63,849 nucleotides of DNA, filler included, from Reclinomonas americana ATCC 50394 (GCA_048213135.1; 11 parts of 11 records of this genome joined end to end with filler, not necessarily neighbours in it), one strand, 5' to 3'; shown: positions 2,173 through 62,746, counted from the whole stretch's first letter. The notes: generated by a model from the sequence alone, not told the origin. Numbers and translations are program-made.

Positions 2173-5100
2173 ATGCGTCACGCCTACTGCGTGGCCATCG
2201 CAGCGGCGCTGCTGCTTGTCGTCGCGCCACTGTGTGTGGCGGTGATGCCACAGCACGCTGATGAGGCGACGGACATGGTGGAGCATGGAGGCTGGTCGTA
2301 TCCGGCGGACACTGCGCACGTGGTGGCGGGTCTCCTCTCTCTGCAAACCAGTGGCCCGCTCGACCGCCCGCCGGAGCTGCACCCGGAGTTGCAGTGGCAC
2401 TCGACGCTCGTGACGAGTGGGCACGCGGAGGGTGCGGTTGTGCGAGGTGAAGGTGCATCCGAAGATGGTGTTGATGGCATGGTGCGCGACTTGCACGTCT
2501 CTGCCGCCACTGCGGGCCTCCGTGTGCGCGTCATTGCGCTGCGCAATCATGTGCGTGTGGAGCCGGCCACCACATTGCGCATCGTCGCCATCATCCTGGA
2601 AGTTGCGCGTGGTGTGAGAGATTCGAATATTCGCGTTTTCTGGGGTTTCGTCTTTCGTGCTGTGTGTGGTAATCCCTCTCGCGCACGCGCACTCGCGCTG
2701 TCTTTGTCACTGGCATGCGGATGCTGCGACACATGCTTCGTTTCGGAAAAATAGCGAAACACGCACGTGCGAATGAGCGCCTCTCACTCTCCCCACTTTC
2801 TCTCACACACGCACTTCCTCTCTTTCCCTCTCTCTCCCTCNNNNNNNNNNNNNNNNNNNNNNNNNNNNNNNNNNNNNNNNNNNNTTAATTAATTAANNNN
2901 NNNNNNNNNNNNNNNNNNNNNNNNNNNNNNNNNNNNNNNNCCCTCACTTTGCGCTCCGTGCAGTCGGCGCCCAAGGGGAGCACGATTCATGACATCTCCA
3001 TCGACTATCTTCATGAGGTGAGTGAATGCAATGCAGCGCGTTTCCCTGCCGATCGCATGTGGTTTGACTCGACAATCTCTCTCTCTCTCTCTTGTGTAGC
3101 GCGCATTCCGCGTGATTTGTGATGACGCGGCGGTGGAGCGACTGCGTGAGCGCATGGGCAATGACATTGCTTGGGTTGGTGACTGGACTGCTGCGCTAAA
3201 GGTGGACGAGTCGACCAAGGACGTGGAGGCGCATGTGCGTGCCATGTTGCTGCATCGTGGTGAGAAGTGGGATGATGCGTGGCATTTGCGATCGCGTGCG
3301 TCGCGCTTCATGAAGGACGACGAGACGCTCGGAGACCGGTGGGCGACTGTGCACATTGAGGTGGCGCGTCACCCGAATGGTATCTCGCCAGAGCAGTTTG
3401 CCGAGCGCCTGATGGTCACCTTTAACGAGCACGGCATTCGGGGTGAGTGTGTGTGGCATGTAGAAAGCTTTCAGTACAATGCACTGTGCTGAATCCCATA
3501 CCCACAGCGCGTCTGGCCGACGTGACGGCCGGTGCACATGGCGTGCTGGCGCTCAACTTTGGCGACTTTTACGACATGCCGCGCGCCGTGAGCGCAGTAT
3601 TGTCGCTGCCGAACGTCATGTTTGCTTATGTTGCGTCTCGGTTGTCGCACTGCGTTTCTGTTACCGGCCTGCACTTATTCCCATTCAGATCGAGTCGCCG
3701 ATTGGCGTGCCGGAAGATATTTCTCCAGCCAACTTTATGCCGCAACAGCAACAGCAGCAGCTCCCGACTGCGCCAGTTGCCGCCGATTCCACCAGTGAGT
3801 CGGTCACCGTCACCGACTCGCATGCACACTCCAACATCTCCACGCGCAACTCGTCGGTCATCGGCATTGTGGAATCTGGTACCGTGGGCACCGTGCCTTT
3901 TGTCGGCGTGTTGTCGGGCAAGAACCAGCGTATCGGTGCGCATCTGCTGGTCGTGTGTCACACGATAAATGTTCTGCTAACTCCGTTCTCTCCAGGCATG
4001 AACGTATCCGGCGTCGATTTCTATAACTGCTTCTTCCACGATCCGAACAGTGCAGTCACGTTTAGTGTGCCCAGCACCACAATCACTGGCTCCAATATTT
4101 TCAGCGACACCACAGTCAACACGAACCATCGCAAGGTTTGCCATGCTGCACTGTGTTCTGTGCTGGCGGAGTGACGATGCCTGACTTTTGCTTGTCTCAT
4201 GCTTGCCATGATAGATTCTGGTGTACGTCAACCTTCTCGGTGGGTACGAGTGTTGTGCCTTGTGTCTGTTAGCTGCAGCAATAACTCTCACGCACTCTCC
4301 ACACCTGGTTTTTTGCGTGTTCACAGACAAGTACGATGCGCCATCCCCATCCAACGGCACACACATGGTTTGCTTCTTGACTCGTGGTCTCGCAGGAGGA
4401 CTTGAACTCGCCTCTGAGCTGATCTTGTGCTTTGTGTTGTAGGCTGGTACCATCTCCGGTAATGCCAACGCAAATGACGCGAACAATTTCATCACGGGAT
4501 TCAACGGCATCGCCACCGACGCCAAGCTGATCATTCATGACACCGGCTGCAACGTCACTCCCACCACCGGGTGCACTACGACTTTTTTGACCGGCACTGC
4601 AACTACTCCCCGATACACCAGTGCAACGCTCAACTATGTGATGGGTCACTTGATGTCGGTTCGTACGCCCGCGCTTTGTGTTTCTTTTCGCGGTTCGCTA
4701 ACGTGTTCATGTCGTTCTACGTCATCTGTTACAGAATCAGTTGCGTTTTTCTGTCTTCTCACTCCCTCGCTTCTATTAAATTTACTTTTCTAATTCTCTG
4801 TGTGATTTTGCAGAGCATACATTGTGCTGCATGGGTGAGTCCTCTTTTTCTCTCACATCCCTGTCTCGAATTTCATCGTATTCTCGCCTCTAATTTGCTG
4901 TCTGTGTGCGTGCACAGTGAATCGGCAACATCGAGTGCGTACAGTGCCACCGAGCGTGTGTACGATCACTTCTATGCTGGTAGGCATTCGCCTTCTTCAC
5001 GTCGCTTCAATAGTGGCATGTGATCTGACGAACAACGCAGGCTGTCTCAGTGGATGCTCGGGTACTACCGCCGTGCAAAACTACCCGGATGCCACGGTGT

Positions 5101-8100
5101 GACTTCTGTCACTCTTGCTCATTCTCGCTTGCTCTCATCACTCACGCAATGCTGCATACTTCTTTTATTAGAACATGCTCGGCATTGTCAATCCGGGAAA
5201 CGTCCCGTGGAACGGTGCCAGCTTTGCGACATTCGGCAGCACCGTGCGTGGCATTGGTATGCTGAAGAACTCGCTTACGGTGGGCGCCAGTCGTTCGAAC
5301 TACAAGCAGAACTACATTACTGGCGTCGTGTGGACACCCGTTGAGTCGATGTGCTCGTGTGTGCCTGACTACAATTCGGTTTGTGGGTTTTTGACAAAGT
5401 TGACGGTTTCTTTGTGCACAGGATGACATGGCGTACTATTCCGTGCCAGGTCTGGCGCAACTGTGCGTAACATTACTGTGTCGAGCTTCTTCTCACATTG
5501 TTCTGTCGCACAGGCCCTGCCGGTGGATATACTTCGAGCGTGCCGATTGACGGACGTTACGGAATCCAAGTGGTGGCTCCGGGACAGGCCGTCCGCTCTG
5601 CGTTTGCGTATGACCAGTCGCTTGCGCCGGACACAAATATGTGTGGATCTGGAAGTCGTACAGGTTCGTCGCACGTAGTGCACACTTGACCATTTGTATG
5701 TGGTAGCTCGGTTCTTACCGATAGCGAATGCGCAGTTACCAGCACCAACGTGTGCAAGCATGTCGGTCTGGATAACGACGCAGCGTGCAATGCGTCACAG
5801 CGCTACTCCATTGCCTCGGAGTTCCCGCCCACTGCTGCTGTTGCCGGTGTTGCTGGTGTGTTTTACAATGCGAAGCTGACGGTGTACAATGCCTTCTGAA
5901 TCATGGTCCCATGCGCAGCTCTTCTCCGCGAGTACCTGACAACGAGCTATCCGATGGCGCCCAACGCCAATGGCACAAACGCGGTGCCATTCACCAAGCC
6001 CCCGGCGTCACTGATGCGCGCTCTGCTTATCAACTCTGCCGATCGTCTGCCTGACACCGGCTACTATGGAGGCGATGCCAGTAACTCCGCCAACAGCCCA
6101 CCGACAAACATCTTCCAGTACCAGATTTCGACTCTCACCGAGTTGCAAAAGTCGTACCTGTTCGGTCAGTGGTCGTGTCACCTTTCTATTCTATTTTTTA
6201 CCTTTGTTTCCCCCGGCTTACGTGCGCACAATCGACGGTGACCGCAGGATACGGTCTTGTGAAGCTGAACAACATTCTGTCCCCGAACTCCGTGTCGCCG
6301 CGCTCGTACGCACTTGAAGCTGAGGGCTCCACGATCACCGCAGTCGACACAGTGCAATGGGCGACTCCGTTCTCATTCACCAACGGCTGCATTTACAATT
6401 TCATCCTCACCGGCACTGCGAATGTTGCGTTTTGCACTGTGATGAAAAAAANNNNNNNNNNNNNNNNNNNNNNNNNNNNNNNNNNNNNNNNNNNNTTAAT
6501 TAATTAANNNNNNNNNNNNNNNNNNNNNNNNNNNNNNNNNNNNNNNNNNNNTTGCCGCTCACTGCTGACTGTCGCTTCGTGATGTGTGAGCAGCTTCGCA
6601 TGACGCTGGCGTGGACTGAGTTCGGCAATGTGTCTGGTACAATTGCAATCCTCAAGTTGCGTCATTTGTCTTCTGCGCTCCGCGCGTTGTGATTCTCCAA
6701 GGCAGGCTGATCGATTTCGTTTGTGTGATGCAGTGATTTGAACTTGGTGCTGGTGCGCGTCGATAATGGCGTCGAGACGCTGGTGCAGATCGGTAACGCA
6801 CTGACTGGCTTCCCGACGAGCAATACCGTGAGCGGCTCGGCTGCTATTATGGCCAACACCGACACGCGTAACCTGGAGGAGCGTGTGACAGTCACCAATG
6901 CAACCGCGGGCACTTACCGCGCCTACGTCTACGTTGCGTTATCCTTGTCTCACACGTGGATCACGTGACTCTATAGGCTCACATGTTGTCATTGTAGGCG
7001 CGCATTCTGCCGTCGACCCCCGGCGTCAAGTTCTCACTGGCCATCACGGCAACTGCAAACATTGCTGGTGCGTGTTTGTTGCCCGCAAAGTAGTGGGCAC
7101 CTGTGTGGTTCACGCTGATGACATGTTTTGGTGCAGTGCCGCCGTTTGGGTTCTCGAACATTGCGAGTGCCGTGGTCGGCAACCAGTGCTCTGACATCTC
7201 AGTGGTGCTGAATCACCCGCTTCACGACGGTGGCGTGTCTCTCGACGGCAAGAGCGGCATTCAAGCGCGTGGGTATGTCATGCTTCTGCACGCACGCGCA
7301 AGCACACTGCCTTGAGCTCATACGTGGACTGCTGTGCAGCATTCGCATCTACCGGTCCAACGACGAGAGCACCTCGCTTGGCGACAAGACCGACACATCG
7401 AGTCTGAACGCAAGCCAGTCGACGTTTACAGCGTCTGCGGCTGACATTGCGGCGGGAACGTGAGTGCTCTTGTACCGTGTACTGATCGTTTGAATCCTCG
7501 TGCTGACCTACAATCGTCATGAAAACGTGTGCACAGAATCTACATCAAGTCGCTGTTCACCAACACACAAGGACTCACCAGTGTGTTTGGCAAGGCTGGC
7601 AACATTTCGTCAAAGGGCACGTTTGCGGCCGTCAACGGACCATATACATTGTATGCTGGTGAGTTGATTCACTGTTGCCATCCTCAGCAGTGCGCCACCT
7701 GCCAGTCTCATTCATGCTCGTGCGTACACTGATAGATGAAGCACCGGCTTGGGATGCTGGAATTTCGTCGTCGACGTTCAGTGCGCCATCGACTGCTAAC
7801 CAGCTCGTTGGCACGCTGACTGCACCGGCGCAAGCATCAGCGCCTGTCACGTGGAGTGTCGTCGGCGGAGCCAACCAGTCGTCGTTTACGGTCGCCAATA
7901 CGAATGAGCTGCGCTTGACTGCTGCCAATTTGGCGGTCGGGACGTACACGATCATTGTGCGTGGTATCGACAACAGCAGCAAGTGCTTCACGAAGACGTA
8001 CACGATTACCGGCTCAGGTGCGGTCTGCATCTATGCACACACTCGTTTGCTCATGTGCCACTCACGACTGTACCCTCTGCTGCCACACAGCAACCGTGGC

Positions 8101-10162
8101 TCTCACCGTCACCAACGTCACGCCGACGTCTGTGATTGGCAACAACGCGACCACGCTGAATCTGACAGGCACGACACTCGACCAGCTCACGAGCGCGGTG
8201 CTTATTGCCACCAACGGCAGCTGCACCACCGATACGCCCACCAACGATGCGTCGGTGACGGCATTGACAGTAACGGGCACTGCTTCGACCACCGCCACGC
8301 TGTCTGCCACGATCTCGCAGAAAATTACGCTGAAGGTTCACTTAGGGTTGTGCAGCTTGGCGTGCTCATGTTGCCGTTCGAGATGGCTGACTTTTGAGTT
8401 CCTTTTTGTTTTTGCAGTTGTGTGTCCAGCAGAACAAGAGCACGTGGCTAGACTCTGGATTCACCGTCGCGTCCGTCATTAGTTGAGTATCTCCCTGCTG
8501 TCAATCGTGTTGTTCGTTGGGCTTGTCACTCAACATGTGCACTCACCTGACACAGTGACTGTGACGAATGTGACCCCGACGTCGATCATCGGTAACAATG
8601 CGACGGCTGTGAATCTGACTGGCACTTCATTGAATCAGCTGACAGCTGTGCGATTGGTGGCAAGCAACGGCACGTGTACTGGCTCGCCGACGAACCACGC
8701 TGCTGTGACGAATGCGTCGATCACTGGCACACCGGCATCGACCTCGGCGGCACTGTCGGTGACACTGTCACAGAGCATCACACTGAAGGTGAGTTTTAGA
8801 GACACTTGATTGTCCACTTGCGTTCATGCTGACGTGATGTCTCCTCTGTGCAGTTGTGCGTGCAACAAGGCAGTGCAGTGTGGATCGACTCGAAATTCTC
8901 GATCACGTCCACGATCAGTAGTTGCGTGACTGATTGGTTGACGAAACTGAAATAAGCATTCTTTTGTGTTTCGTGCGAGCGTGCGACAACTGGTGCCATG
9001 ATGGAAAGGGCGAGATTGTGTGTGTCTCTGTCACTCTTGTTCGTTTGCTTCTTGCTGTTTGCATCTGACTGTCATTCCCACTCTGCCCTCTCCCTCCCTC
9101 TCCCTCTCTCCCTTTGTCTGTTGTCTGTTACCCTCGCTATTTTTCTCTTTCCTTCTCTCTCTCCCTCCCTTCCCTCCCTTTCCTCCCTTCCCTCCCCTTC
9201 CCTCCCCTTCCCTCCTCTTTCCTCCCCTTCCCTCTCTCCCTTCTCTCCCTCTCTAAATCTCACTGGTGATTGCACGTACAGAGGGAGGTGGCATGTGCAC
9301 AACAACGCCTGCTGCTGTCGCTCACGAGTCGAAGCGCATTTGGTGGTCGGTCGCCTCCAACGCCGACGGCAGCAAGCTGGCAGCCGTGGTCGAGTTCGGT
9401 CGTATCTACATCTCCACCGACTCGGGTGTGACGTGGACGCCGCACGAGTCGAACCGCTACTGGGTCAGTGTGGCCTCCAGCAGCGACGGCACCAAGCTAG
9501 TGGCCTGCGTGTACTGTGGCGGTCAGATTTACACCTCGACGGATTCCGGTGTGACGTGGACTCCACGTGCGTCGGTGCAAGCGTGGTCGGCAGTGGCCTC
9601 CAGCGCCGATGGCACCAAGCTGGTAGCCGTGGCTTTCAGTGACTCAATCTACACCTCCGGTGACTCTGGGGCGACGTGGACGCCGCGTGAGTCTCATCGT
9701 CAGTGGGTCGCTGTCGCCTCCAGCAGTGACGGCACCAAGTTGGTGGCCGTGGTGAGTGGCGGCCAGGTATACACCTCCACTGACTCGGGTGCGACGTGGA
9801 CAGCACGCGACTCGAATCGCCCGTGGGTAGCAGTGGCCTCCAGCAGTAATGGAGCCAAGCTGGTGGCCGTCACCCACGGTGGCCAGATCTACACCTCTTC
9901 GGACACTGGTGCGACGTGGACGGCACGCGAGTCGGCGCGGTTGTGGCGGTCAGTGGCCTCGAGCAGCGATGGGTCGCACCTTGTGGCCGTGGTCGGGAAC
10001 GACAAGATCTACACCTCCGCTGATTCCGGTGTGACGTGGACGGCACGAGAGTCGGATCGAAACTGGTTTGCGGTGGCCTCCAACGCCGACGGCAGCAAGC
10101 TGGTGGCGGGTGTGTACGAGGGACAGATATACACCTTGGATCTCAGCGCCTGTCTGGCGTGA
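2173..10162 (+). CDS. Secreted multidomain S8 (KP-43/TagC-like) subtilase homologue, probably catalytically dead. Order: signal peptide, prodomain, S8, jelly-roll, cadherin-like, 2 IPT-like repeats, BNR beta-propeller (about 30 introns)
   Basis: Spliced translation gives LSGKNQRIGMNVSGVDFYNCFFHDP, NGTHMAGTISG, NPGN...KNSLTVGAS, DGRYGIQVVAPG, AVAGVAALLREY, PPASLMRALLINSA, FGYGLVKL, LRMTLAWTE...ILNDLNL and NLEERVTV...AGTY, all KP-43-family motifs in order. A phase-1 splice from 8920 to 9282 joins the propeller exon. The link from exon 1 crosses an assembly gap and is less certain. Confidence 0.8.
2841..2940. other. Artificial scaffold gap linker (N44-TTAATTAATTAA-N44), first of ten
   Basis: Identical 100-nt linkers occur at 2841, 6452, 12597, 19119, 20955, 26928, 43370, 49818, 53711 and 62747. 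Most abut low-complexity tracts. Confidence 0.99.
9341..10138 (+). repeat. Six full plus one partial 40-aa BNR/Asp-box repeats (7-bladed propeller), intronless
   Basis: Unit W-x-x-VASSxDGxKLVAV-x-x-GQIYTSxDSGxTWTxRES contains the Asp-box S-x-D-x-G-x-T-W. Confidence 0.9.
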
Positions 10163-14486: not shown

Positions 14487-14520
<34 letters not shown>

Positions 14521-17500
14521 GTCTCTCTGTCTCTCTGCGTGTGAAGTCTGTCTGTCTCTTTCTCTCTCTCTCTCTCTCTCTGTCTCTCTGTCTCTCTGCG
14601 TGTGAAGTCTGTCTGTCTCTTTCTCTCTCTCTGTCTGTCTGTCTGTCGTCCGGTTTCCTCCCTCCCCTTCTCCATCTACTCACTTCTGCCCCTCTTCTCC
14701 TTCTGCAGGCCTACATTGGCCTGCACAAGAACGCCCACGGACGCACGTTTGCACAAGTCAAACGCGCCATGGCCGACTACGTGGTGGCCGGCCTGTTGAT
14801 CACACCAGCTGAGGCCACATTCACACAGCAGCGTGATGCACTTGTGGTGGCAGCCAGCGTTGTGAACTCGGCAGACGCAGCGACAATGGCCGCGGCATTT
14901 GCTGTGCGCGGACTTGGTTAGTGTTGCTTGTTCTTGTCTGCGAGTCTTGCGATGTGCATGTCTGATCGCTGTCCGCGCTCAGGTGTGTGCGCGGTCTCGC
15001 CGACGCAGTATGACAACTCTGATGTGATTGAGTCGTTTGACGATGATTGGTCCAAGTTCAGTATTGTGGTGGACCAAGCGAGCGTGGAAGAGGGTGCTGT
15101 GAATTGCAATCACGACGGCGTTGTGGTGCGTGCGTTCATTGTTGCATCCGACACCATGCGTTCTTCCCACCAACTCACTCTCTCTCGTATCTGTGCACAC
15201 ATGCTCGCAGCAAGCCGGTGAGGACGGTGTGGTGCGAGTGGTTGTTCACAATCCCCAATACTATACCGGGAGCAACACAATGACGGTGACGCTCGTTGCG
15301 AATCCCAGCACACCTGCCGATGTCAAGTTTGCCACACTGTCCAAGGTCGTCGCTGTGCCGTCTGCTGGACAGTCGATCACAGTCGAGTTCCCATTCCACC
15401 TGGCGTCAACGTCGCGCAATCCGATTGCACTGGAAGGCAACTTGTCGATCACCGGTGGCAAGGCATGCCGCGAGGTGGGTAGCTCGTTCGCCGATCTCAT
15501 CGGCGTGGAGTACGCGCCAGCGCAGTCGGCGACAGAGGATGTGAACTCGCCGTTCGCCAAGCAAGTGTGGACGGCGGGAGGCACCGCGTTGGCGTGGTCG
15601 TTCGTCGGGATTCAAACTGGTGACTCAGCATTCTACGGCCAAGACCTCGGTGTTATCAGCGACACTTGGTTGCAGTCGCCGGCTGTGACTGTGTCCAGTG
15701 ATCCGACAAAGCCTCTCGTAATCTCGTTTGACCACACGTACTCGTTTGAGTCCGACGCGTCTGCGGCATACGATGGCGGCGTGGTGGAGATTTCCAGCGA
15801 CGGTGGAGCGACGTGGAATGATGTCTCGCAATGGGCGTCGGTGAGTGCTTGACTGAAAGGAGACGAAGATGAGAGGAATGGGTCGGAGGAAGGAAGCGGA
15901 GTGTGTAGCAAGAGAGAGAGACACGTACATACGATCTAGCGAACCAACTGTTCTGCTTGCCAAATGGCACTCACTGTCTCTAATACTGCGCAGCCTTCGT
16001 ACACTGGTGTGATCTTCGTTGGAGCGGATAACCCGCTGTCGAACCGGCCGGCATACGGTCGCTCTATATTCCCCACTTTCAACCAGGAGACTCTTGACTT
16101 TGGGCAGGCTTTCGCAGGTGCAGGAGGGGGGCGTGCGCTGTGCAAGTGCTGTTCATCCGCTAAAATGTGCTTCCTGCGTCTCCTTCCGCACATTCAGGCA
16201 AGACGGTGGCAATCCGCTTCCGCATCGGGACTGACCAGGCGGGGTCAGATATTGGTTGGATCATCGACAACATTGCCTTCGCGGGGATCACCAATACTCC
16301 GTTCGGAGCACGCATTCAGCCAAAGTGCAGTGCCTGCTCGTGCCTGCATGGCACGTGCCAGGCCGACAACACATGCAAGTGCAACTCGGCGCACTGGACC
16401 GGTGTGGATTGCGGATCGTGCGCCGGTCACTGGACCGGTCCCACGTGCAGCGTGTGCTCGGGATGCAAGAACACGGAGACGTGCCGCGACGCAGATGGAG
16501 CGTGTGTCAATCCGACGAGTTGCGCAAGGGAAGGGGTCACCGAGGGTGGTGAAGGGTGGATGATTGTGACTGACTCTGCGTGCAGATGGGTTCTGTGAGA
16601 CGGACATGCACTGCAACTGGAATCACCTGAGCATCAATGGTGAGAGGAGGGACAGGAGTGGGGAAAAACGAAGAGAGAAAAAGAGGTGCAACCCTGAGAG
16701 TGAGGAGTGTCGAAGAATGAGGCAACGAGAAAAGACTGTCGGAGGTGCGAATGAGGTTTTGGGGGTGACAGAAAGCGATGAGAGAGAGAGAGAAGGATTT
16801 GTGATATGTGCGTGAAAAAGCTTGATAGATCAAGTGCATGAGGAGACTGCGAAGACAGGGAACAGAGCCTGGAGGTGCCATGATGAGCGGTGAAAAGGGA
16901 TGAAGTAGTCTGATGAATCAAGCATGATGGGTGACTGTGGAGAATCGGAACAGGACATGGGATCGTCGAAGACTGTCGTGAGAGAGAGAGAGGGAGATGA
17001 GATGAAGCAGTCTGATGCATCAAGCAAGGCAGGCGATTGTGGAGAGAGAACTGGAAATGGGATTGTAGAAGACTGTCTGCATGTACACACAGAGAGAGAG
17101 AGAGAGAGTTAAGACGAGTGACAACGGATGCCGGAGGAAAAGGATGAGACGAAGTTGTCGGATGTGATCGCAGTAAACTAGACAAGAAGGTGCGAGAGAA
17201 ATGGACAGTGAGAGAGTGATGGAGGAGTATGGTGGGGTGCAATGTGTGTGGCCTGGTGAAATCTGAGAGTGAAAGAGGCTGTTTCTCACGGTGTCTGTGA
17301 CATTTCTCTGCGCGCAGGCAACACTCAACCAGTGACCATTGGCAACAAGTCGAGCCTCAGCGGATACTGCGTGCTGACGAGTGGCCAGTCGTCTGGCAAG
17401 TGTGTGTGCTTGTCTGGCATTGGTGGCAAGAACTGCCAGGTGCGTGAAGAGAGAAAAGGGGTGGTGGCGACAGCAACGAACTGCGTCGTGCGTTTTGATC

Positions 17501-18771
17501 CTTGCCTTTCGTTCTGTGTGTGGATATTTGTCATCTCTGAACGTGAGGGAGTGGCAAAGCGTGTTTGAGAGTGGGCGTGTTGCGCAGTGTTTCTCTCTCA
17601 CTGTTCTTGGTGGGAGCGTCTTTCACTGGCTTTTTGCTCTCCACTCTTGATCGCCTCCGCGATTGTCTTGTTGTTGTCGCCACACCCATTGCCTTCCCCC
17701 AACAAACAGTGCCGCCCCGTGGAGGACTGCTCCGGTCACGGCTCGTGCTTCCTGGACGACGGATCGTGCTCGTGCTACGTGCCGTTCGCCGGCTCGACCT
17801 GTGCGCAGTGTGACGCTCAGCACTTTGGCGCCAACTGCAACCTGACATGCACGTCGTGTTTGGCGGCTGGAACGGCCAGTTGTGCGAGTGCCAGCGGCTG
17901 CGGTGAGTGTGCGCGTTGGAGAGGGTGGGATGCAGAAGGCTTATGAGTGACTCTTGGTTTTTCGCAGTGTGCAAGGCCGGTTTCACTGGAGCTCTGTGTG
18001 ACAGCTGTGCGCCTGATCGCTGGTTTGTGAGAGAGAGAGAGAGAGCGAGAGAGAGAAAGAATGTGTGCGTATGTGCTGTGCTGTGCTGTGCTGTGCTGTG
18101 CTGTGCTGTGCTGTGCTCTGCCGTGCCGTGCCGTGCCGTGCTTTGCCGTGCTGTTCTTTGCTGTGCTGTGCTGTGCTTTGCCGTGCTGTTCTTTGCTGTG
18201 CTGTGCTGTGCTTTGCCGTGCCGTGCCGTGCCGTGCTGTTCTTTGCTGTGCGGTGTCCGTTTCTCACCATCATCTATGTACGGTGCAGGGGCTCGGACTG
18301 CAGCAAGAGCTGCTCGACTTGCAACGCCGCCGGCACGCAATCGTGCTCCACGGGCCGCACTGGCACCGGCTGTGTGTGCAAGAGCGGGTTCAGTGGACCG
18401 ACATGCGCGGTCGTGGCGCCTCCGCCAGTGTGCACCAGCGACTCGCAGTGCATGGGGTACGGTGTGGGTCATGCTGACAATGGTGGCCTGTTTGTCGGCG
18501 GGCGATGCACGAACAAGTTGCGTGAGCAGCGTGGCGAAGAAGCCGCTTCACTTGATGCTGACACGACCGTGTGTGTGAATGCAGTGCGTGTTCTTGCACC
18601 TATCCGTATGCGCCGTATGCCAGCACCGGTGCTATCGGAACGCACTGCCAGTGCCGCATCGAGGGCCCGTGCCAGTTGCTGAACAAGGGCGCGACCCCGT
18701 ACCAGGCGTTCAACTGGAGCAACGGACAGCGGCTCGGCTGTGTTGCGGGCACAGATGCCAAGTGCGCTTGA
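10960..18771 (+). CDS. Secreted M36 (fungalysin-family) zinc metallopeptidase with PA insert, C-terminal beta-sandwich and EGF/laminin-like Cys-rich tail (multi-exon)
   Basis: Signal peptide MHFATIVALLLAVGALTVPAASA and an FTP-like propeptide (RQSVHGVEV). Core motifs TRGNNVDAY, QLFYVTNFLHNYWYDSGFDEAAGNAQ and NANMSTPSDGMRPRMQMY. PA domain IALIRRGGCSF. HEWGH at 14010-14024, then SEG and EVHNAGEIWA. YDGGVVEISSDGG...DNI module followed by EGF repeats. Confidence 0.9.
18074..18250. repeat. Intronic pentamer satellite (CTGTG/CCGTG)n
   Basis: Visible directly inside an M36 intron, with a duplicated higher-order block. Confidence 0.9.
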
Positions 18772-20355: not shown

Positions 20356-22835
20356 ATGTCGCCCTCACGTTCATTGCTTGTTGTGTTGTTGGTGACGGCC
20401 GTTGTGGTGGCGCTGTCCGCGGTGAGTCTCTCGCACACAGAGAGAGAAGAGAACGTGTGAGAAAGTGTGTGCCAACAATTCTTATCACTCTTTCGTCTCT
20501 CAGTTGCCACACTCTCTCGTACTGCTTTCTTGCTCACACACAAGAGTCTTCCCTTGTCAAGTCAGTCTTTGTGTGTTCATTCTTCTTCACCGTCTCTCAC
20601 TCTCTCTCTCTCTTTTCGTTGTCTCTTCCTCTCTTACACATCTCTTCCCTTCTCACACCCTTGTTTCCACGTTGCCTTTCTGCTGGTCGTCTCTCTCTCT
20701 CTCCCTCTATCTGTTATATTCTCGAGGTTGCTCCCTCTTTCCTCTTTCTGCTCTCACGCATTGCGTCTCCCTCCCTCTCCCTCTCCCTCTCCCTCTCCCT
20801 CTCCCTCTCCCTCTCCCTCTACCTCTCCTTCTCCTTCTCCTTCTCCTTCTCCTCTCCTTCTCCTCTCTTCTCCTCTCCTCTCCTTCCCTCTCCTCCCCTC
20901 TCCTCCCCTCTCCTCCCCTCTCCTCTCCTCCTCCTCCCCTCCCCCTCCCCCTCCNNNNNNNNNNNNNNNNNNNNNNNNNNNNNNNNNNNNNNNNNNNNTT
21001 AATTAATTAANNNNNNNNNNNNNNNNNNNNNNNNNNNNNNNNNNNNNNNNNNNNCCCCTCCCCCTCCCCCCTCACCCCCTCACCCCCTCACCCTCTCACC
21101 CCTCCCCCCCTCACCCTCTCACCCCCTCACCCCACCCCATTACCAGCTCCACTCCCACGCCTACGAAGCCGCCGAGCATCACTGGCTCGGCAGCTCGTGC
21201 ACCTTGAAGCTGCCCAATGCAGACGGCACGGAACGCTCCGTCGGCTGCGGCACCGAGAACCTCCAGATCCACAGCGAGTCACTGACCTTCGCCTACATTT
21301 CGGCCATGGCCGCCGACTTTTACGGCAACCCGTCGCAGCCGATTTCGGATGCCTAGTTTCGTTCACGCATTCGATATCACCCTCTTGTTGTGCCATGACT
21401 CTCCTCTTGTATCTGCTTTGTGGACGGCCGTCTCTAACTGTGCCGTGACTCTCCTTCCACCCTCTTCGTGCTGTACCTTGACTCTCCTTAGTGCTTCGCC
21501 GTTGATCTCCTCTCCTCTTGGTCTGCTGTGCCACCTTTTGCTTCTCACACGCTTTTCATCCTCTCTCTCTCTCCTCCACTTTTCCTGTTTCTCCCCCTTC
21601 CCTTCCTCCTCCTCACCCTTTTGCTTTCTCCCCAGCTCCACCGTCGAGCGACGGACCCGTTTCCTGCAGCACTTTGCGACCCTGCTGACCGGCTCCGACC
21701 TTGCCGCCGTCAAAGCCGCCATCAAGAGAGAAATCGACACCGTCGGCGGCCCTGGCGGCTCCGCCTCGGCCACCTACAAGCGTGAGGGCGAAAACTTCAA
21801 CATTCTCTTCAACAAGGCCACCGGCGGCTCCGGTGACTCGGTGGCCAGTCTGGCCATCTCCTCCAGCCAAGGCCGCTTCATGAAGCTGGCCGAGCGCAAC
21901 TGGGACCACTTTGGCAATCGCGCCGAATTGTGCTACATTGCCGGACACTCGCTGGCCGTGGAGAAGGCCATTGAGGCCAAGCAGGAGACGGATGCCACCG
22001 CCAAGGAGCGCAAATTGCGCATGGCGTACGCGCTCGACGCCTACGCTTGCCATTATCTGCAGGATCTCTTTGCGGCCGGTCACTTGCGCACGCCGCGTCG
22101 CGAGCTCTACGACGAGGCCATTGTGTCGACCAAGATCGGCAGCTTGTGCGCTCGCTACATGCACAACGAGGACAACAAGTCCGGCCTGTTGATCAAGAAC
22201 AGGAGCGGCAAGCAGTACACCACCTACGGCGACACACGCCTCTTCGACTCGGTCTGCAACAAGGCCCGCGGTGAGATTGTCAAGGCGATTGCGCGCTCAG
22301 TGGACGAGGTGTGGACGGCGTTCCGCACCGGCTCGCCCACCATTGGCGCGCCGTCGGCTCTGCGACTGCTGCCCGACCGTGCCGACTTGCTGCGGAGTGC
22401 CGACGATCCCAGCACGCCCAACATTAGTCCGCTCTTCCGCAAGAGCGACGGCAAGATCCTGCGCCGTAACGATATTTCCAATCTGTACGACCGCAACTGG
22501 ACGCGTGTTTACACGCTCTCCTCCACCGTTGCCTCGTACGAGATCTCGCCGCCACAGCTGCCGGTGCTCTTCATGTCGCCGTCGGAGCGCGAGTTGATTT
22601 CGCTGGAGTTTGACATGGCACTCGAGGAACAGATGCGGTCGGCCATGGAGAGCGGTGAGCCTACTTTCTCTCTTTCTGGCAGTGTTTGTTTGTTGCTCGT
22701 GTTTGTTTCTTACACCCGCTGTGATGGCGCACAGATGCGGACTTCGAGGACCTGCTGGCGCAGTTTGACAACGAGGAGGGACTCGAGGACAAGCTCGACG
22801 ATGAGGACGAGGAGGTGGAGGAGGACGATGAGTAA
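20356..22835 (+). CDS. Secreted zinc-metallophospholipase C, Legionella PlcA/PlcB and Pseudomonas fluorescens PC-PLC family, copy 1 (4 exons)
   Basis: Signal peptide exon 20356-20421. Motifs YEAAEH, AMAADFYG..PISD, LAERNWDHFG, DAYACHYLQDLFAAGHLRTPRR, MHNEDNKSGL and YGD. Acidic tail. Confidence 0.85.
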
Positions 22836-22965: not shown

Positions 22966-24539
22966 ATGAGCACACACAACAGACGGTCTAGCATTCCTCC
23001 GTGGAGTGTCCTCCTTGCCGCCATCTTCCTTGCGGTGATGGTGCGGTGCTGGAGAACACACACACACACACACACACGCACTTGTCCGCTGTGCTTTTTC
23101 GCTGACTGGCGTGCGTGCACACAGGTCACTCACGCGGAGGCCTACGAGGCTGCAGAGCATTTCTACCTCGGCAACTCATGCACACTGCGTCTGCCGACCG
23201 AGGAGGGCTGGTTCCGCGATGTGAAAAGCTCCGAAACCAATCTGCGCATTCATCAGGAGGAGGTCACGTTTGGACACATCACCGCGCTTGCCGGCGACTT
23301 TTACGGGGTGCCGGCAAAACCCATCTCCGACGCCATGTTGCGTGCAAGACACTTGTGACATGTGTGCAACACTCACCTCTCTCACTCTCTTTCTCTCTCG
23401 CAGAGACGATGCTGAACGTTCCCAGCGCTTCCTCGCCGCCTTCGACACCCTCAAGTCCGACGTCAAGCTCGCCTCCGTCATCAAGGCCATCAAGCAGGAG
23501 ATCGATCTCATCATGCAACGCGACGCAGGCACCAAGGCCTCGCTGGTGTACAGGGGAGTGGGCGAACGATTCAACATTTTGTACAACCGCAAGACCGGCG
23601 GCTCCGGCAAGACGACCGCCAGCCTGGTGACGGGCGCGACACAGGGGCGTTTCATGAAGCTGGCGAAGCGCAACTGGGACCATTTCGGCGATCGAGCCGA
23701 GACTGTGTACAAGACCGGGCACCATGAGGCCATCCGCATCGCCATCGAGGCTGCGGAGGAGAAGTCGTTTGAGGAGAAGACGAAGAAGTTGCTGTTGGCG
23801 TACGCGATGGACGCCTACGCCAACCACTTTCTGACCGACCTCTTTGCGGCCGGTCACTTGCGCGTGCCGCGACGCGAGCTGAGCGATCTGGCCAACATCA
23901 AAGGTCTGGGCGACCTGTGTGCGCGCTTCATGCACAACGAGGACAACTTCAACGGCCTCAAAATCAAGACCCACGCCAGTCGCCGCTTCACCGTGTACGG
24001 TGACACGCGCCTCTTTGATCCGGAGAGCGACGGCGTTCGACCGTACATCGAAAAGGCAGTGCAGACGTCGGTGGACGAGGTGTACGAGGCCTTTTCCACT
24101 CGCAAACAGCCGCGCGGTGACTTCAAGGCGCTGCGTCAGCTGCCGAACCGCCAGTACCTCATTGCCACGGCCGACACGGACGTTGAGAACATCAGCCCCC
24201 TCTTTCGATATCGCGACGGCATTATGAGCCGCCGCGTGAAGACGTCGGACCTGCACGATTACCACTGGACCACGGGCTTCACGTACGCAGCATTGGTAGT
24301 GGAATACGAGGCATCACCGCCACCGGTGCCTACCGCCGTGCTCAGCGAGCTTGACGACGACGAGGAGGCGGAGAGTGCAGAGCAGGATGTGGCCGCCGAA
24401 GAGATGCTGGACTTGGCGCTCGAGCAAGGTGAGCACACACACACACGCGAGCGCTGCATCAGTGCAATGCATAGAGGTTGTCTCATACTGTGTGGCGGGC
24501 ATAGATTTCGCGCTGGAGGTGGACGACGACGAAGAGTGA
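22966..24539 (+). CDS. Secreted zinc-metallophospholipase C, same family, copy 2 (4 exons)
   Basis: Motifs YEAAEH, ALAGDFYG..PISD, LAKRNWDHFG, DAYANHFLTDLFAAGHLRVPRR, MHNEDNFNGL and YGD. Its three introns lie at positions equivalent to copy 1. Confidence 0.85.
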
Positions 24540-44058: not shown

Positions 44059-48960
<4,902 letters not shown>

Positions 48961-52899: not shown

Positions 52900-53440
52900 G
52901 CACACTCCCGTTGTGAGATTGTTGACCAGCTTGCCACAGTTCTTGCACTGCAGTACGCGGTGAGAACGAGGGTGGGACACAAATCATTACGCTCGAAAGC
53001 CCGATACCTTCCACATCTGCACGAGTCGCACAGATCGAGTGAGCATGCGGCAACGAGGAAGCAAACAGAAGACAATTGGAGACGCAACGACAGCATCAGC
53101 CGCATTCTTTGCTTGGTGTGTGGCGAGCTGAGGCGAGAGCAGAAGGGAACAGATCAGCAGCAGCAAGCGACAAACACGAACGCGAGAGAGAGACGCACCT
53201 GCGCTCGCATATCCTGCATGTCGTTCTCATGCGTAGTGACCACGGACTCGTGCTTGCTAAACAACATGGCGATCTGCGGAACGGTGAGCACCACATGCCA
53301 CCGAGCTTCACGCCTCGCCAACAACACCACACCTGCTCGTCGCAGTGTCGAAGACGCGTCTCCAGCGACTCGGTCTTCTGCTTCAGCGACGTGACCTGCG
53401 ATGAAAGAGGTGCGCGGTGAGGCACTGCGCACACACACAG

Positions 53441-53810: not shown

Positions 53811-53842
<32 letters not shown>

Positions 53843-54478: not shown

Positions 54479-57400
54479 ATGTCAGGTGGCACTCGCGATC
54501 GACTCCTCCGCTGGCTGTGCGTCGTCGCACTGCTGTCACTGGCAGTGTTGAGCAGCACTGCAACAGCCGCAAGTGAGTCCACCTTAAAGCACACACACGC
54601 ACGTGCACAGCACAGCACAGCACACGAACATTTGTGAGTGTTCTTTGACTCATTCACGTGCGCGCACTCTCTCTCTATGTGCGGTTCACGCGACTGTCTC
54701 TCAATGCTGCTCGTGTGTGAGCGTGTGCGTGTGTGTGAGAGAGAGAGAGAGTGAAAGTCTGCACATACAGTGCGTGTCTCCATCATCATGATCGTGTCCG
54801 CAGCAGCGCGCTCTCGCAGTATTTTTTTACGCGTCCCCTTTTTCTCTCCCTCTCTCCCTCTTGTGCTCCTCCCCTTTATCGCCCCATTCACAACTGCGAT
54901 AGTGCCCTCTATGCTTTGCGTGCTTTTTTTTCGTGCGAAAGACGACCGTTGAGACTGCATGCACATCATCTTCTCATTTTCGCGCCCATTTTTTGTTCTC
55001 TCAGCGGTCGTCTCGCCGGCCAACATCGCCATCAAGGCCGGCACCGCTGGCCAGATTGTCAACATCAATGTCCTGGGCTCGGCGATTGCCTGGTCGCCTG
55101 CCTCCACGGCCACTCTCTTCCTCGACCGCTCGTGCATGGGCGTGTCGCCGACCACTGTCGTCAACTCCAGCACCATCTCCGCTGCCTCGCTCACCTTCAC
55201 TGCGTCGGGTGATGGCAACGGCGGTGAGCGCTACCTGTGCATCGACGTGGACGGTGCGGGCGCGGCCGCGCGCAACGAGTTTGTGGCCACTGTGTTTGTC
55301 TGTTGCGTGCATGCATTCTCTTTCAATCACATCGCAATCATCATCGCCGCCTCATTGACTCTCCCGGCTTCCTTCCCATCCACGCAGACACCCTTGGTTC
55401 GCAGAACAAGTCGCCGCAGCTGGTCAATGGTCTTGCCGACTTTCGCCTGACGGTGACTGGCCAGCACTTTGCCAATCGCCAACTGGGTGCTGGTGGCGCG
55501 TTTGGCCTGTACTCGGCCGCGGATTGCAGCGGATCGCCGGCTGCAAACTCGAGCGTGACTCTGCAGGCCAGTGATCCGGCTGGCCTGCACATTGACTTCT
55601 CGGTGGCCACTGGTGCATCGTTTGCGCAGGGCGCTCTGGGTGTTACGGCCGCCGGCTCGTGCACACTGGCGTCGCCGGGCGTGTACTACCTGTGTGGCAA
55701 GTTACGTTCATTTGAGGGAGAGTGAGAGAGAGAGAGAGAGGGCGCTGACATTTCTGCTGTGTTCTGCAATCACCTGAGCACTTCACTCCCTTTCGCGATA
55801 TGTATGTTTGTCACACCTTCATCTGGTGTGTCGGCTTTCTCTCTTACCCTCATTCTTTCCGTCTTCGCCTTGTTCTTCTCCCTCTTATCCTTCCCTCGCC
55901 TTCACCTCACTTCGCTCATCATTCTTCCCACGTCCAGGTTCCAGGCCGGTGGCACCGCTGTGTACCGCCTGCAACCCCTCCCACTCATCGTGACCGCCGC
56001 CTCGTCGACTCCTGTGGTTTCCTTCGCTGCTCCACCCGTCCTCAAGTACGGCAAGGCCAACGCGATTGTGATCGGCTCCTCGGCTTACAATCTCACCGAC
56101 TGCACGAGTTTCAAGCTGGTGCCGGCCGGCTTCGATTGCGCCACTCTGTCGGACTACTCGACGCTGACGGGCAGTGTGGGCGCGGTGTTTGTGCGCGGTG
56201 GCGCCGATACCTGTCAGTTCGCGACTGGCTGCCGCCTGTTCCGCGCGACCATCACGCCGAACGGGTCGGTTGGTGGCGGTGCATACAAGTTGTGTGTGGC
56301 GGCCAACAACGGACCGTACATGTCGTCGTCGGAGGCGTTCACCTCCGGCTTCATGACGGATGGTGGCCTCGGTGCGAGTGGCCCGATGCCTGCATCGACT
56401 CCGTTGGCCACTGACGATACCACTACCAAGCCAAGCATGTCAACGCTGGCAGTGACGGCAACCACGATACAGTTCACATTCGCTCGCGAGTTCTTCCGCC
56501 GCCCGCGCGTGTTGCTCGGCTTTGCCAGTGTCGGAAGTCAGCAGCCTGCCGGAAGTATTTCCACTCTTGCCAACGAGCCGAGTGATGGCACGTTTGCATT
56601 CTGTGCGGAGCCGGTGGTGACGGTGTCGCAGCTGTCGACTCGATGCTATGGCGTGTCGACTGACCGCCGACCGGGACCCACCATCACGCTGAGTTGCGTT
56701 CATGATGGAGGGAAAGGTGTGAGTGAAATGTGACTCATCAGCTTCCCTCTGCTTTGCTGCAAATGCAGGCTACCTGGCGTACTATGTGCATCAGACGAAT
56801 GCCCTGTCGATGGATGGTCAGCGCACGCTGACAAGCAAGGCATGGGCGTCGGATGCAGTGAACAAGAACGGCTCGACTGTTGCGTGTTGGTTTGACCGTC
56901 GCCGTGAGCCAGCCTTGGACGCTTAATCACTCTTGTCCACTCTGCACAGCTGGTGAGCGTGTCATCCGCGTACCAGTTTGCGTCGGTGCCAGCCATTCCA
57001 GTGGCCGTCATTGGCGTGCTGTCGATGCGCCAGTCGGCTGCCGGCAACGATGAGCGCGTGCGCGGCGATAATTTTTCGGTGACCAGCAGCTCAGCCTCAC
57101 GCTCCAGCTTCGTCATCAAGGGCACGGTGAACGGCGACTCACGCATGGAGGCTGTCTCTACACGCTTTGCTGTGGCACCGACACGCCCCGACAACACCAA
57201 CAACAGCGGATTCGTCATGCTGTCGGGTGGTGCGTCTCATCCTCCCCTTTGGTTGGAGTGACATCTTTTTGCTATTTATCTGACCCCTTACGTGTGGCAC
57301 AGAGACGACGCACACCAGCACTGCGACGATGCAGACAGCCAGTCTGGTGACTTCGTCGACCCCCAACGGCCTTCTACGTGCCACCATCAGCGTGCAGCTG

Positions 57401-60472: not shown

Positions 60473-60540
<68 letters not shown>

Positions 60541-60680: not shown

Positions 60681-62746
60681 ATGTCGAGCATGAGGATTGT
60701 GCTCTTTGTGGTGTGCCTCCTCATTGTGATGGCGAACGTGGTACTGGCCATGGTGCAAGCTCAAGGCAAGTGTTTCCTATATCGGCAGCTCGCGTCTCAT
60801 TGGCACTCATTCATGCTCTTTCGCTCATATGCACAGGTGGTACATGTACCACAACTGGCAACGAGTGTGGAGTGAATGTTGCGTGCACGTGGCTTGGTTT
60901 CCGTCGACATCTTTTCACGAAGAATATTTTGTAACTCCTTGCATGTTCAACCCTGCTCCCCTTTTTACTCACTCTCTCTTCCGCGCAGGGCTACTGTTCT
61001 GCCGGCAAGTGCGCGTGCCACAACAACTGCTTCACCGCCACCAACGGTGCCAGTGTTTGCGCCACGTGAGTCTCCTGCAGCAAGCTACGTGGACACGACA
61101 TCCCCCCACTCACTCACTCTTCTCCCCTTCTTTGCCGAACAGCTGGGCGGGTCCGTTCTGCTCGTGCCACCCGTTCGTGACGTGCTCGAACAACGCGGCC
61201 TCGTGCACTAGCACCGGCGCCTGCGTCTGCAGCGCAGGCTCCTTCGGCACCAAGTGTGACCAAAAGTGCTCGCCCGCCACCTGCAACAACAACGGCACCT
61301 GCAGCGCTGCTGGTGCCTGCCAGTGTAATGTCAACTATTACGGAGCCACATGCAACGTCTTCTGCAATCCGGCGACCACTTGCAACGGCAACGGGACCTG
61401 TAATGCGAGCGGTCAGTGCGTGTGCACCGGCAACTTCACTGGCGCCTCGTGCAACCAATGCAAGCCGGACTACTACGGTGCCACGTGCAACGCCCTCTGC
61501 AACCCCGGCACCACCTGCAGCTACAACGGCAGCTGCAATGCCAGCGGACAGTGCGTGTGCCTCGCCAACTACTACACCGCCAACTGCTCCAAGTTCTGCA
61601 CCGCCGCCAAGACCTGCTCCGGCAACGGCACGTGCGACGCAAATGGCCAGTGTGTGTGCACCGGCAACTTCACCGGCGCCTCGTGCAACCAGTGCAAGCC
61701 GAACTACTACGGGGCGACCTGCAGCAAATACTGCAGCGCGGCTATCACGTGCAATGGTCGCGGAACGTGCGACAGCACCGGCTCATGTGTGTGCTCCTCA
61801 AAGAACTGGACGGGCACGGCGTGCGATCAGTGTGCCGCCAACTATTATGGCGCGAGCTGCGAGAAGTTCTGCCAGGTACGTGCGTGTTAGCGGTGGGAGA
61901 GGACTGGGATGAGGAGAAAGGAGATTAGTGAGGACATAGGCACTCAAGATAAGATTGGTGTGAGTAGTGGCTGTGAGTGGATCTGGAAACGCAACGCTGC
62001 AACCATGTATTGCAGTGGAGATGGTGGGTGGAATAGCAGTGGAGTTGTAAGAATGCACGCAGAGCGGTGGTTATCGTAAGGGAGACTGAAGAATGGAGTG
62101 GACAGCAGTGCGATGCTAGCTTCAGTTATTTCCAACCGCTCACCTCTTTCCCATGCATAGGCTGCTACCACCTGCAGCGGAAATGGCACTTGCTCCAGTG
62201 ACGCCACCTGCGTGTGCAACGCCAAGTACTACGGCACTTCATGCTCCGTCTTCTGCGACGCGGCTGTCACCTGCAGCGGCAACGGCTCGTGCGACATCGC
62301 CAGCGGCAAGTGCACATGCAAACCAGGCTTCGACGGCCTGTATTGCTCACTGCCGCGTTCCCCTTGCACTGTGCACGCGGACTGCCTCTCCGCAACGGCT
62401 GGTGCCAAGCTGAGCAACGGGCAACCCATCAATGGCGGCCTCTGCGTGTCTGGCTTCTGCAAGTGCAATGCACCCAGCAGCGGCGCGCACTGCGAGTGCA
62501 TTGCCGATCCCGGTCGCTGCTCGGGTTTCATGTCGTTTGCGCGCTTCAGCACTCCGGATGGCCGCTTTCTGGAATGCAAGTCCACGTGCTCTGGGAACTA
62601 CACCAACTGCAGTCCCAATGCCACGTGCTCTGGTCACGGAACGTGCAAGGCTGACGGCACATGCCAGTGCACTGGCGACTACACCAATGCCAGCTGCAAC
62701 TGCAGTCCCAGCGTCACATGCTCTGGCAATGGAACATGCAAGACTG
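60681..62746 (+). CDS. Secreted EGF/laminin-EGF repeat protein, 3' incomplete (runs into gap)
   Basis: Signal peptide MSSMRIVLFVVCLLIVMANVVLA, followed by many CxxxGxCxxxGxCxC...YYGATC repeats across in-phase exons. Confidence 0.88.

Follow-up and report, generated by a model that had tools for sequence, protein, structure and literature searches.

A GTT-type heptamer class at putative 5' splice sites in a genomic window of Reclinomonas americana

Introduction

This study concerns the 5' splice sites in a stretch of DNA from Reclinomonas americana ATCC 50394 (GCA_048213135.1), hereafter the window, which is 63,849 nucleotides (nt) long including filler and joins 11 of 11 records without implying that they are adjacent in the genome. 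The window carries, among others, an S8-like gene, a gene built of two paralogous modules, a DUF676 gene, a UBX gene and a class III cyclase domain, and two recognisable classes of start stand out among the introns predicted in it: a canonical class, G/GT[GAT][CA]GT (a slash outside brackets marks the cut throughout), and a shifted class, GTT[GAT][CA]GT, in which one extra T follows the GT. The shifted heptamers are most likely true GT-AG donors, a conclusion that we draw with good confidence from coding signal, frame and homology, and somewhere between a fifth and a third of the introns of the window would begin with one; these introns are usually 55-110 nt long and end in YAG. How such sites might be recognised by U1 small nuclear RNA (snRNA), and where the cut then falls, are the main questions addressed below.

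Materials and Methods

All splice junctions described here were predicted from the sequence of the window; H denotes A, C or T. A codon table was trained only on open reading frames (ORFs) with Pfam support, and its frame call was correct for 117 of 130 held-out segments of 25 codons. Two exon-chaining parses were used, namely a donor-agnostic parse, which combines GT..AG with the codon score and holds no other donor knowledge, and an expectation-maximization (EM) parse, which was retrained on its own output with a first-order donor model and run to convergence. Predicted gene spans, taken from the EM-type parse, cover 35,959 bp on the plus strand and 8,246 bp on the minus strand. In the frame test, the acceptor of a site was chosen by a position weight matrix (PWM) derived from canonical-donor introns only, together with a length prior, while the upstream and downstream frames were called independently by codon score; the test asks which donor offset modulo 3 (delta in Table 1) reconciles the two frames.

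Among the procedures rejected were early exon-chain parses with a codon table from all long ORFs, which gave junk donors; a motif-restricted parse, in which genes became fused; and a branch-word plus AG rule, which discriminated poorly (51% versus 26%). Pairing energies were computed with RNAduplex using a human-type U1 5' end taken from Tan et al. 2016 (PMC4856993), which may differ from the U1 of the host.

Results

The preliminary description of the window listed 32 introns that begin with a heptamer of this kind, and at every one of these 32 coordinates a heptamer of the GTT type is present, with a base other than G just before it (A 19, T 9, C 4 and G 0 at position -1). The four forms that it named account for 29 of the 32 sites (20 GTTGCGT, 5 GTTGAGT, 2 GTTACGT and 2 GTTTCGT), whereas 16519 and 39438 carry GTTGCGC, with C at +7, and 26123 carries GTTGTGT. 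The observation is real and exceeds chance: GTTGCGT is found 35 times on the two strands against 13.78 ± 4.12 expected, a count reached by none of 100 dinucleotide-preserving shuffles, while the ordinary GGTGCGT is found 22 times against 14.47 ± 3.80, a count reached by 2 of the 100. Specifically, the extra base is T, with 26 copies of GTTGCGT on the plus strand and 9 on the minus strand versus 1 and 0 for GTAGCGT, 4 and 6 for GTCGCGT, and 9 and 4 for GTGGCGT. Copies of GTTGCGT beyond the 32 listed sites lie at 27776, 28820, 31176, 32592, 41737, 43091 and 55302 on the plus strand, with eight more on the minus strand. Within the predicted gene spans the ratio of sense to antisense copies is 26:3 for GTTGCGT and 13:2 for GGTGCGT, and counting whole classes on the sense strands gives 49 shifted heptamers versus 43 canonical ones.

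Evidence for donor function begins with the donor-agnostic parse, in which TGCGT is the commonest word at +3 to +7 (7 of 96 donors, the runners-up reaching 2 each) even though GTTGCGT makes up only 35 of the 8617 GT sites. The 96 donors of this first pass comprise 9 shifted, 8 canonical and 79 other sites, and the 97 donors of the converged EM parse comprise 20 shifted, 18 canonical and 59 other sites. Moreover, the best-frame coding score falls past the site by a mean of 2.18 for sense-strand shifted heptamers and 1.26 for canonical G/GT sites, compared with -0.06 for all GT sites. The proposal that the organism uses shifted donors routinely is supported in the sense that they form a large class, both among the parsed introns (20 of 97) and among the sense-strand heptamers.

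The class resembles neither of two known kinds of special intron. U12-type (minor) introns have an extended, conserved 5' signal resembling RTATCCTT, and the heptamers here are GTTGCGT-like, with nothing conserved past +8 in the sequence logo. An introner or transposon-derived family is likewise not indicated: in the logo of the 26 plus-strand GTTGCGT copies, neither the stretch +9 to +16 nor the stretch -8 to -3 shows any conservation, and the 3' parts of the listed introns differ, as judged without formal clustering.

Homology and paralogy anchor some of the junctions individually. Pfam searches made exon by exon (150, then 95 ORFs) placed domains at just a few candidate sites, and the claim that cutting at these GTs restores conserved motifs is backed by homology tools in the DUF676 and cyclase genes, while the S8-like and UBX junction peptides (...IAIL[N]DLNLVLV at 6656 and FAMFAQI[Y]PVPWAP at 41548) were re-derived without a homology test. 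In the DUF676 gene the exons flanking the intron at 38382 match positions 77-102 and 118-174 of the Pfam profile. Four short introns interrupt the class III cyclase domain (47694-48390, plus strand). The exon upstream of 47836 closes with ...GGTVDKFVGSCV (DKFVGSCV), with its last residue aligned to ...GGTIDKFVGDCV (DKFVGDCV) of CyaB (3r5g_A 20-62, E 9e-4), and it also aligns with photoactivated cyclases; once the 67-nt intron is removed, the next exon continues as [T]AFWNAPVETDLHAF, giving the junction SCV[T]AFWNAP. The exon before 48176 ends in ...RIGVHTSTCLVGTIGSHARLVYTA (RLVYTA) and matches 3r5g_A 106-133 (E 0.17) and, weakly, 1wc0_A 127-157, which ends in ...SDFTA (E 1.7), and the exon after this intron begins IGDSV. 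A (Y/F)xxxGD spacing is typical of class III cyclases. Between the two aligned blocks, 3r5g_A has 43 residues (from position 62 to 106) and the gene model 44. As an observation on the enzyme itself, the conserved GD of ...KFVGDCV is GS here, which may mark a non-catalytic half-domain.

A further pair of junctions is fixed by paralogy. In the gene at 21003-24556 (plus strand), two modules are paralogous to one another (local alignment score 795), and an intron stands before each of them at the same position. Their alignment runs up to the final residue ahead of each donor (...PSQPISDA and ...PAKPISDA) and picks up once more at ERRTRFL and ERSQRFL, and cuts at /GTTTCGT (21356, 280 nt) and /GTTGCGT (23337, 67 nt) give PISDA[x]xxxER at both junctions with the same spacing, so that across 21356 and 23337 alike the modules resume four residues before ER(R/S)xRFL. 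The module family is large and has no Pfam match: a representative search with 21493-23334 returned 1380 matches at up to 47% identity over query residues of about 40-375, a range that leaves the exon ends uncovered; the best of them has about 40% identity over residues of about 50-360. Elsewhere, homology was silent: the short cyclase and S8 exons had no Pfam match, homologue searches with the S8 exon 6735-6932 and with a cyclase exon gave no match, and a WD40 ORF gave generic WD40 matches only.

The position of the cut was investigated with the frame test. Across the 32 listed sites, offsets 0, 1 and 2 were favoured at 13, 2 and 2 sites respectively, with 15 uninformative (P = 3.4e-4), and across the 45 sense-strand H/GTT[GAT][CA]GT sites at 16, 5 and 4, with 20 uninformative (P = 0.0016), compared with 757, 780 and 810 for all GT sites. 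A canonical GT in the same phase lies within 30 nt of only one of the 32 sites (30515, with the GT at -27). A cut one base later, at G/TTGCGT, would make a final G universal in the exons and keep the usual distance from cut to GCGT, at the price of introns that do not begin with GT. This reading is very improbable. With AG/ acceptors, the frames fit a cut before the G (the 13 of 17 informative sites at offset 0), and at these 13 sites the next exon begins with A three times, T three, G three and C four; with G following the acceptor at just 3 of them, the later cut yields a different mRNA, and the ambiguous G/TT...AGG reading is excluded. Moreover, the preliminary description had noted that a cut one base later would produce TAG at 21356 and 33950; this holds at 21356, where the TAG lies in the frame that the paralogue alignment fixes, and may hold at 33950. 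By computation, the offsets and six anchored junctions together would place the cut at a GU one base 5' of the position expected from the block complementary to U1.

Several results weigh against this picture. Openness of reading frames is nearly worthless as a guide in the window, as 79% (plus strand) and 77% (minus strand) of its 8617 GT sites can be joined to a YAG at a distance of 40-200 nt such that 30 or more codons stay open on either side, and the frame arguments of the preliminary description are therefore weak when taken alone. The parses are noisy and insensitive, recovering 17 of the 32 listed sites in the EM version and 8 of 32 in the agnostic one, and the spans used to tell sense from antisense derive from a parse that had already taken the motif into its donor model, although strand is set mainly by codon score. 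A PDB search with the cyclase exons 47905-48000 and 48248-48328 returned no cyclase. In the frame test, four of the 17 informative listed sites favoured offset 1 or 2 (5340, 41548, 18517 and 26123), and the GTTGCGT signal disappeared when any YAG acceptor was allowed (6, 5 and 7, with 7 ties). The positive control failed as well, sense-strand G/GT[GAT][CA]GT sites giving 8, 12 and 10 with 13 of 43 uninformative (10, 11 and 12 on the plus strand), so that either many canonical-looking sites are not donors or the frame test is less reliable than the shifted result suggests. Contamination by coding sites is a likely cause, because several sites of canonical appearance clearly lie in coding sequence, four copies within an EGF repeat among them.

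These points bear on the idea that the heptamers are mostly not splice sites at all, being instead coding words (Val-Ala, Cys-Val) or a strand-specific regulatory motif, and that the gene models are artefacts in a sequence where nearly every frame stays open. Long ORFs in all frames, the 59 of 97 parsed donors that fall in no recognisable class, the failed canonical control and the 15 of 32 uninformative sites all speak for it. We nevertheless consider it improbable, as the parse without donor knowledge finds the motif first, the offsets are 13, 2 and 2, the drop in coding score far exceeds that of GT sites at large, six junctions are anchored by homology or paralogy, and the short stretches downstream of the heptamers end in YAG with CTCAC- or CTGAC-like words before it, as judged by eye. 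The individual sites are collected in Table 1.

Table 1. Predicted introns and donor-like heptamers of the shifted class, with one ordinary intron for comparison (lower case, last exon base)
Feature	Position	Strand	Basis
Intron, t/GTTGCGT, 59 nt	3630..3688	+	Same length from EM parse and acceptor PWM; frame test uninformative
Intron, a/GTTGCGT, 74 nt	4740..4813	+	EM parse; delta 0
Donor-like c/GTTGAGT, S8-like gene	5340..5346	+	Motif; delta 1, PWM acceptor 82 nt; absent from parse
Donor-like t/GTTGCGT	6424..6430	+	Motif; EM length 167 nt; N mask downstream
Intron, a/GTTGCGT, 78 nt	6656..6733	+	Agnostic and EM parses; delta 0; S8 junction peptide
Intron, c/GTTGCGT, 65 nt	6933..6997	+	EM parse; delta 0
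Intron, a/GTTGAGT, 74 nt	8482..8555	+	Agnostic and EM parses; delta 0; next exon opens repeated VTVTNVTPTS domain
Donor a/GTTGCGT, acceptor 59 or 361 nt	8921..8927	+	Preceding exon is paralogue of exon before 8482
Donor-like a/GTTGCGC	16519..16525	+	Motif; delta 0, PWM acceptor 67 nt; absent from parse
Intron, a/GTTGCGT, 68 nt	18517..18584	+	EM parse; delta 2 speaks against
Intron, a/GTTTCGT, 280 nt	21356..21635	+	Paralogue alignment on both flanks, PISDA[Y]STVERRTRFL
Intron, t/GTTGCGT, 67 nt	23337..23403	+	EM parse; paralogue alignment, PISDA[I]DDAERSQRFL
Possible intron, a/GTTGTGT, 62 nt	26123..26184	+	EM parse; delta 2
Donor-like a/GTTGCGT	26481..26487	+	Motif only
Intron beyond the 32 listed, t/GTTGCGT, 68 nt	27776..27843	+	EM parse
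Donor-like c/GTTGCGT	29424..29430	+	Motif only; no gene call in parse
Possible intron, t/GTTGCGT, 63 nt	29566..29628	+	Delta 0 with PWM acceptor
Donor-like a/GTTGAGT	30515..30521	+	Motif; same-phase canonical GT at -27
Donor-like a/GTTGCGT	33950..33956	+	Motif
Intron, t/GTTGCGT, 62 nt, DUF676 gene	38382..38443	+	EM parse; delta 0; flanking exons match Pfam DUF676
Donor-like a/GTTGCGC	39438..39444	+	Motif only
Donor-like a/GTTGAGT	40094..40100	-	Motif, sense strand of predicted minus-strand gene
Intron beyond the 32 listed, c/GTTGCGT, 65 nt	40842..40906	-	EM parse
Possible intron, t/GTTGCGT, 74 nt	41548..41621	+	UBX junction peptide; delta 1
Donor-like t/GTTGCGT	46239..46245	+	Motif; strand call minus or ambiguous
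Intron, a/GTTGCGT, 68 nt	47199..47266	+	EM parse
Intron, a/GTTTCGT, 67 nt, cyclase domain	47836..47902	+	Exon end aligned to 3r5g_A; delta 0
Ordinary comparison intron, g/GTTCGT, 55 nt	48001..48055	+	Cyclase region
Intron, a/GTTACGT, 72 nt, cyclase domain	48176..48247	+	Alignments to 3r5g_A and 1wc0_A; EM parse; delta 0
Intron, a/GTTGAGT, 61 nt	48330..48390	+	Junction TSID[T]TLGAGPSFLFRPLETVVV; frame test uninformative
Donor-like c/GTTGCGT	53082..53088	-	Motif, sense strand of predicted minus-strand gene
Intron beyond the 32 listed, t/GTTGCGT, 86 nt	55302..55387	+	EM parse
Donor a/GTTACGT, acceptor 78 or 237 nt	55701..55707	+	Agnostic and EM parses
Donor a/GTTGCGT, acceptor 49 or 76 nt	56693..56699	+	Agnostic and EM parses; delta 0
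Intron, t/GTTGCGT, 71 nt	56879..56949	+	Agnostic and EM parses; delta 0
Intron, t/GTTGCGT, 111 nt	60878..60988	+	Agnostic and EM parses; delta 0

Shifted donors had been described as occurring only after exons that do not end in G. None of the 32 listed sites follows G (P = 0.009), but the rule is weak, since G precedes any GTT in only 16% of cases in the window (13.6% for GTTG), which makes the exclusivity statistically modest. GTTGCGT follows G once in 35 copies (P = 0.04), and GTT[GAT][CA]GT does so in 7 of 66 copies overall, without significance; the sense strands hold 4 such cases among 49, against a background of 17% (P = 0.06). These four sense-strand copies, two of g/GTTTCGT and one each of g/GTTGAGT and g/GTTGCGT, lie at 2645, 31015 and 60066 on the plus strand and at 40150 on the minus strand. 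Ordinary GTGCGT and GTGAGT donors seem to exist after T or C as well, with sense to antisense ratios of 23:8 for T/GTGCGT, 14:6 for C/GTGCGT and 10:2 for T/GTGAGT. After A, the ordinary form has no sense excess (7:10 for A/GTGCGT and 8:21 for A/GTGAGT), and the shifted form is found on the sense strand throughout (9:0 for A/GTTGCGT and 7:0 for A/GTTGAGT). AGTGAGT is thus the commoner on the antisense strand, and its complement ACTCACT resembles the CTCAC and CTGAC words that stand 10-30 nt before many acceptors; this CTCAC-type word is probably a branch-site motif.

The register in which U1 would pair was examined through the flanks of the two classes, aligned on the 7-mer G[G/T]T[GAT][CA]GT. 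The base before the 7-mer is A10 C13 G4 T16 in the canonical class (n = 43) and A20 C9 G4 T16 in the shifted class (n = 49; chi-square P = 0.30), and a G follows the 7-mer in 26 of 43 and 25 of 49 cases respectively (P = 0.41). Because the classes are alike in this alignment, the absent -1G of shifted sites corresponds to the G-poor position -2 of ordinary ones. CAG is the universal consensus on the exon side, and CA precedes the G of shifted heptamers, which reads as CAG in the U1 register, in 11 of 49 cases versus 6.0% in the background (P = 1.3e-4), while A stands at -1 in 20 of 49 versus 15.8% (P = 2.5e-5). Positions -1 and -2 of the exon at shifted sites thus take the preferences (A, C) of canonical positions -2 and -3, and this enrichment favours a shifted U1 pairing over a bulged U. 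For A/GUUGCGUG and for A/GUUGAGUG alike, RNAduplex picked the +1 register on human-type U1, pairing -1A with U10, G+1 with C9, U+3 with A7 and the G at +8 with U2 by wobble in the former; the duplex is weak, at -0.7 kcal/mol for the GCGU core.

The competing account in terms of a bulge takes the sites to be real donors at which U1 C8 and A7 are paired, as usual, to G+1 and one U, while the second U (at +2 or +3) loops out as a bulge and U1 positions 6-3 take up GCGU; a matching bulge would then be required against U6. Counted from the pairing scheme, it makes as many pairs on human-type U1 as the shift does, and some accommodation of one base is needed later in any case, as +5G and +6U normally meet U6. 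A 'bulge +2/+3' register is also known for human sites, with 68 among 10,248 predicted non-canonical sites and 54 after curation in the account of Tan et al. 2016 (PMC4856993). We regard this explanation as unlikely in the window, because such a bulge frees C9 for the last exon base, so that the exon is expected to keep its -1G preference; instead, G is found there at 4 of 49 sense-strand sites against the 17% background and at none of the 32 listed ones, with -1A and CA enriched. T as the sole extra base also counts against it, though a U beside a U is the easiest bulge too, and RNAduplex picked the shifted register rather than the bulged one.

Energetics complicate the shift itself. The preliminary description had proposed that the first G of the intron stands in for the missing exonic G, which the flank statistics fit as a one-base displacement, but on human-type U1 the shifted duplex after A reaches -0.7 kcal/mol versus -2.4 for A/GUGCGUG and -8.9 for CAG/GUGCGUG; the stand-in G therefore brings no energetic gain, and a standard U1 fails to explain the preference for shifted sites after A. 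The cores may differ as well, GCGT to GAGT being 25:10 in the shifted class and 13:15 in the canonical class (P = 0.07), a difference that a pure shift does not predict. The weak duplex and the core difference together keep an adapted or second U1 in play. If a second, variant U1 served the shifted class, for example with a changed base opposite U+2, while ordinary U1 served G/GUGCGU, one would understand why this class is as common as the canonical one (49 versus 43) yet pairs so poorly with human-type U1, and why the core preference may differ between classes. This account strikes us as less likely still than the bulge: a single U1 explains the shared flanks equally well, and Rfam found no family of any kind in the window at gathering score and, at E <= 1, only microRNA-like and other weak matches without a spliceosomal snRNA among them.

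Pairing in a shifted register is the best of the available mechanisms in our assessment, with chances slightly better than even. Under it, the signal would be a single 7-mer, G-[G/T]-T-R-M-G-T and mostly G[G/T]TGCGT, which U1 would read in one register, with cleavage at the first GT inside it, so that GGTGCGT would be cut as G/GTGCGT and GTTGCGT as /GTTGCGT. At shifted sites U1 would lie one base 'late' relative to the cut, with G+1 opposite U1 C9, U+2 mismatched with C8 and the last two exon bases opposite U10 and G11. We infer that the 7-mer would be read by U1, that the cut would be fixed on the GU only afterwards, by U6, U5 and Prp8, and that the snRNAs would be adapted accordingly.

Other features of the window concern the gene models. 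Ten identical masks of 44 N, 12 bases and 44 N lie at 2841-2940, 6452-6551, 12597-12696, 19119-19218, 20955-21054, 26928-27027, 43370-43469, 49818-49917, 53711-53810 and 62747-62846; they interrupt genes, and one of them hides the acceptor region of the intron at 6424. In the S8-like gene (4215-4790, plus strand), the expected HGTH reads ...SNGTHM/AGTISG in a rough model with an odd donor, g/GTTTGCTT, at that place, which points either to a misplaced exon border or to the absence of the catalytic His. In a fungalysin (M36) gene with a PA domain (12649-14918, plus strand), two long ORFs that overlap at 13476-13677 are joined by an ordinary 56-nt intron, g/GTTCGT, at 13600. Microsatellites of the (GT)n, (CT)n and (GA)n kinds are frequent, for example at 47556-47640, with GTGTGT the top GT hexamer (321 copies), and they pollute gene models based on ORFs and motifs, as in a VCVCVC run.

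Discussion

The nearest relatives of the proposed mechanism come from mammals, where the shifted register is a rare exception, reportedly described by Roca and Krainer for a few dozen GUUAAGU-type sites in humans. Mammalian sites share with the reading proposed for the window cleavage at the GU, U1 pairs displaced by one base, replacement of the -1G by G+1 and a mismatched second intron base; in the window, the exon bases before the cut, CA/G, further spell CAG in the U1 register. The two differ in scale and composition, as the class predicted here is a main one (20 of 97 parsed introns) with a GC-rich GCGU core. The register of Roca and Krainer 2009 is drawn in Tan et al. 2016 (PMC4856993), and the 'bulge +2/+3' and other bulged or asymmetric-loop registers presented there likewise have a GUU start, a displaced consensus block and one extra nucleotide, whereas the exon side in the window prefers A over G at -1.

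Two further lineages offer partial parallels. In the small green alga Micromonas, GC-rich AG/GTGCGT donors are ordinary (PMC3879977), and the ordinary class of the window resembles what that text describes in its GTGCGT/GTGAGT core, short introns and CTGAC- or CTCAC-like branch word; by contrast, the text compared mentions no GTTGCGT class, the supplementary logos lying outside the comparison. In the tunicate Fritillaria borealis, a shifted U1 register has been raised as a possibility for non-canonical introns (bioRxiv 10.1101/2025.08.15.670264); there too, according to the portion of the preprint compared, departure from the standard 5' site characterises an entire lineage, but the introns concerned lack GT-AG ends, whereas the window keeps GT-AG and only the register would move. 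Literature searches for GTTGCGT, GUUGCGU, GTTGAGT and GUUGAGU as words returned no splicing paper, and searches on shifted or noncanonical registers and GTGCGT returned no report of such a protist class among the papers listed, supplements not being covered in either case, so that its genome paper may yet describe one.

The broader implication is that U1 pairing and the cut site may be routinely uncoupled for a fifth to a third of introns, with U1 held to a fixed G-K-U-R-M-G-U register and the cut made at whichever GU that block holds, a proposal to which we give not quite an even chance. If it is true, splicing could do without the pair between G+1 and U1 C8, which is ordinarily conserved above all other contacts, and the organism would probably possess either a second U1 or one whose 5' end is adapted, together with a U6 or Prp8 step that tolerates an extra base. 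Gene finders that score six intron bases from the cut would mis-score or miss such donors, leading to frameshifted or split gene models genome-wide. Shifted and bulged U1 registers are otherwise viewed as rare curiosities of mammalian splicing, and R. americana would then offer a natural experiment on how far U1 recognition can be separated from the choice of cleavage site by U6, U5 and Prp8.

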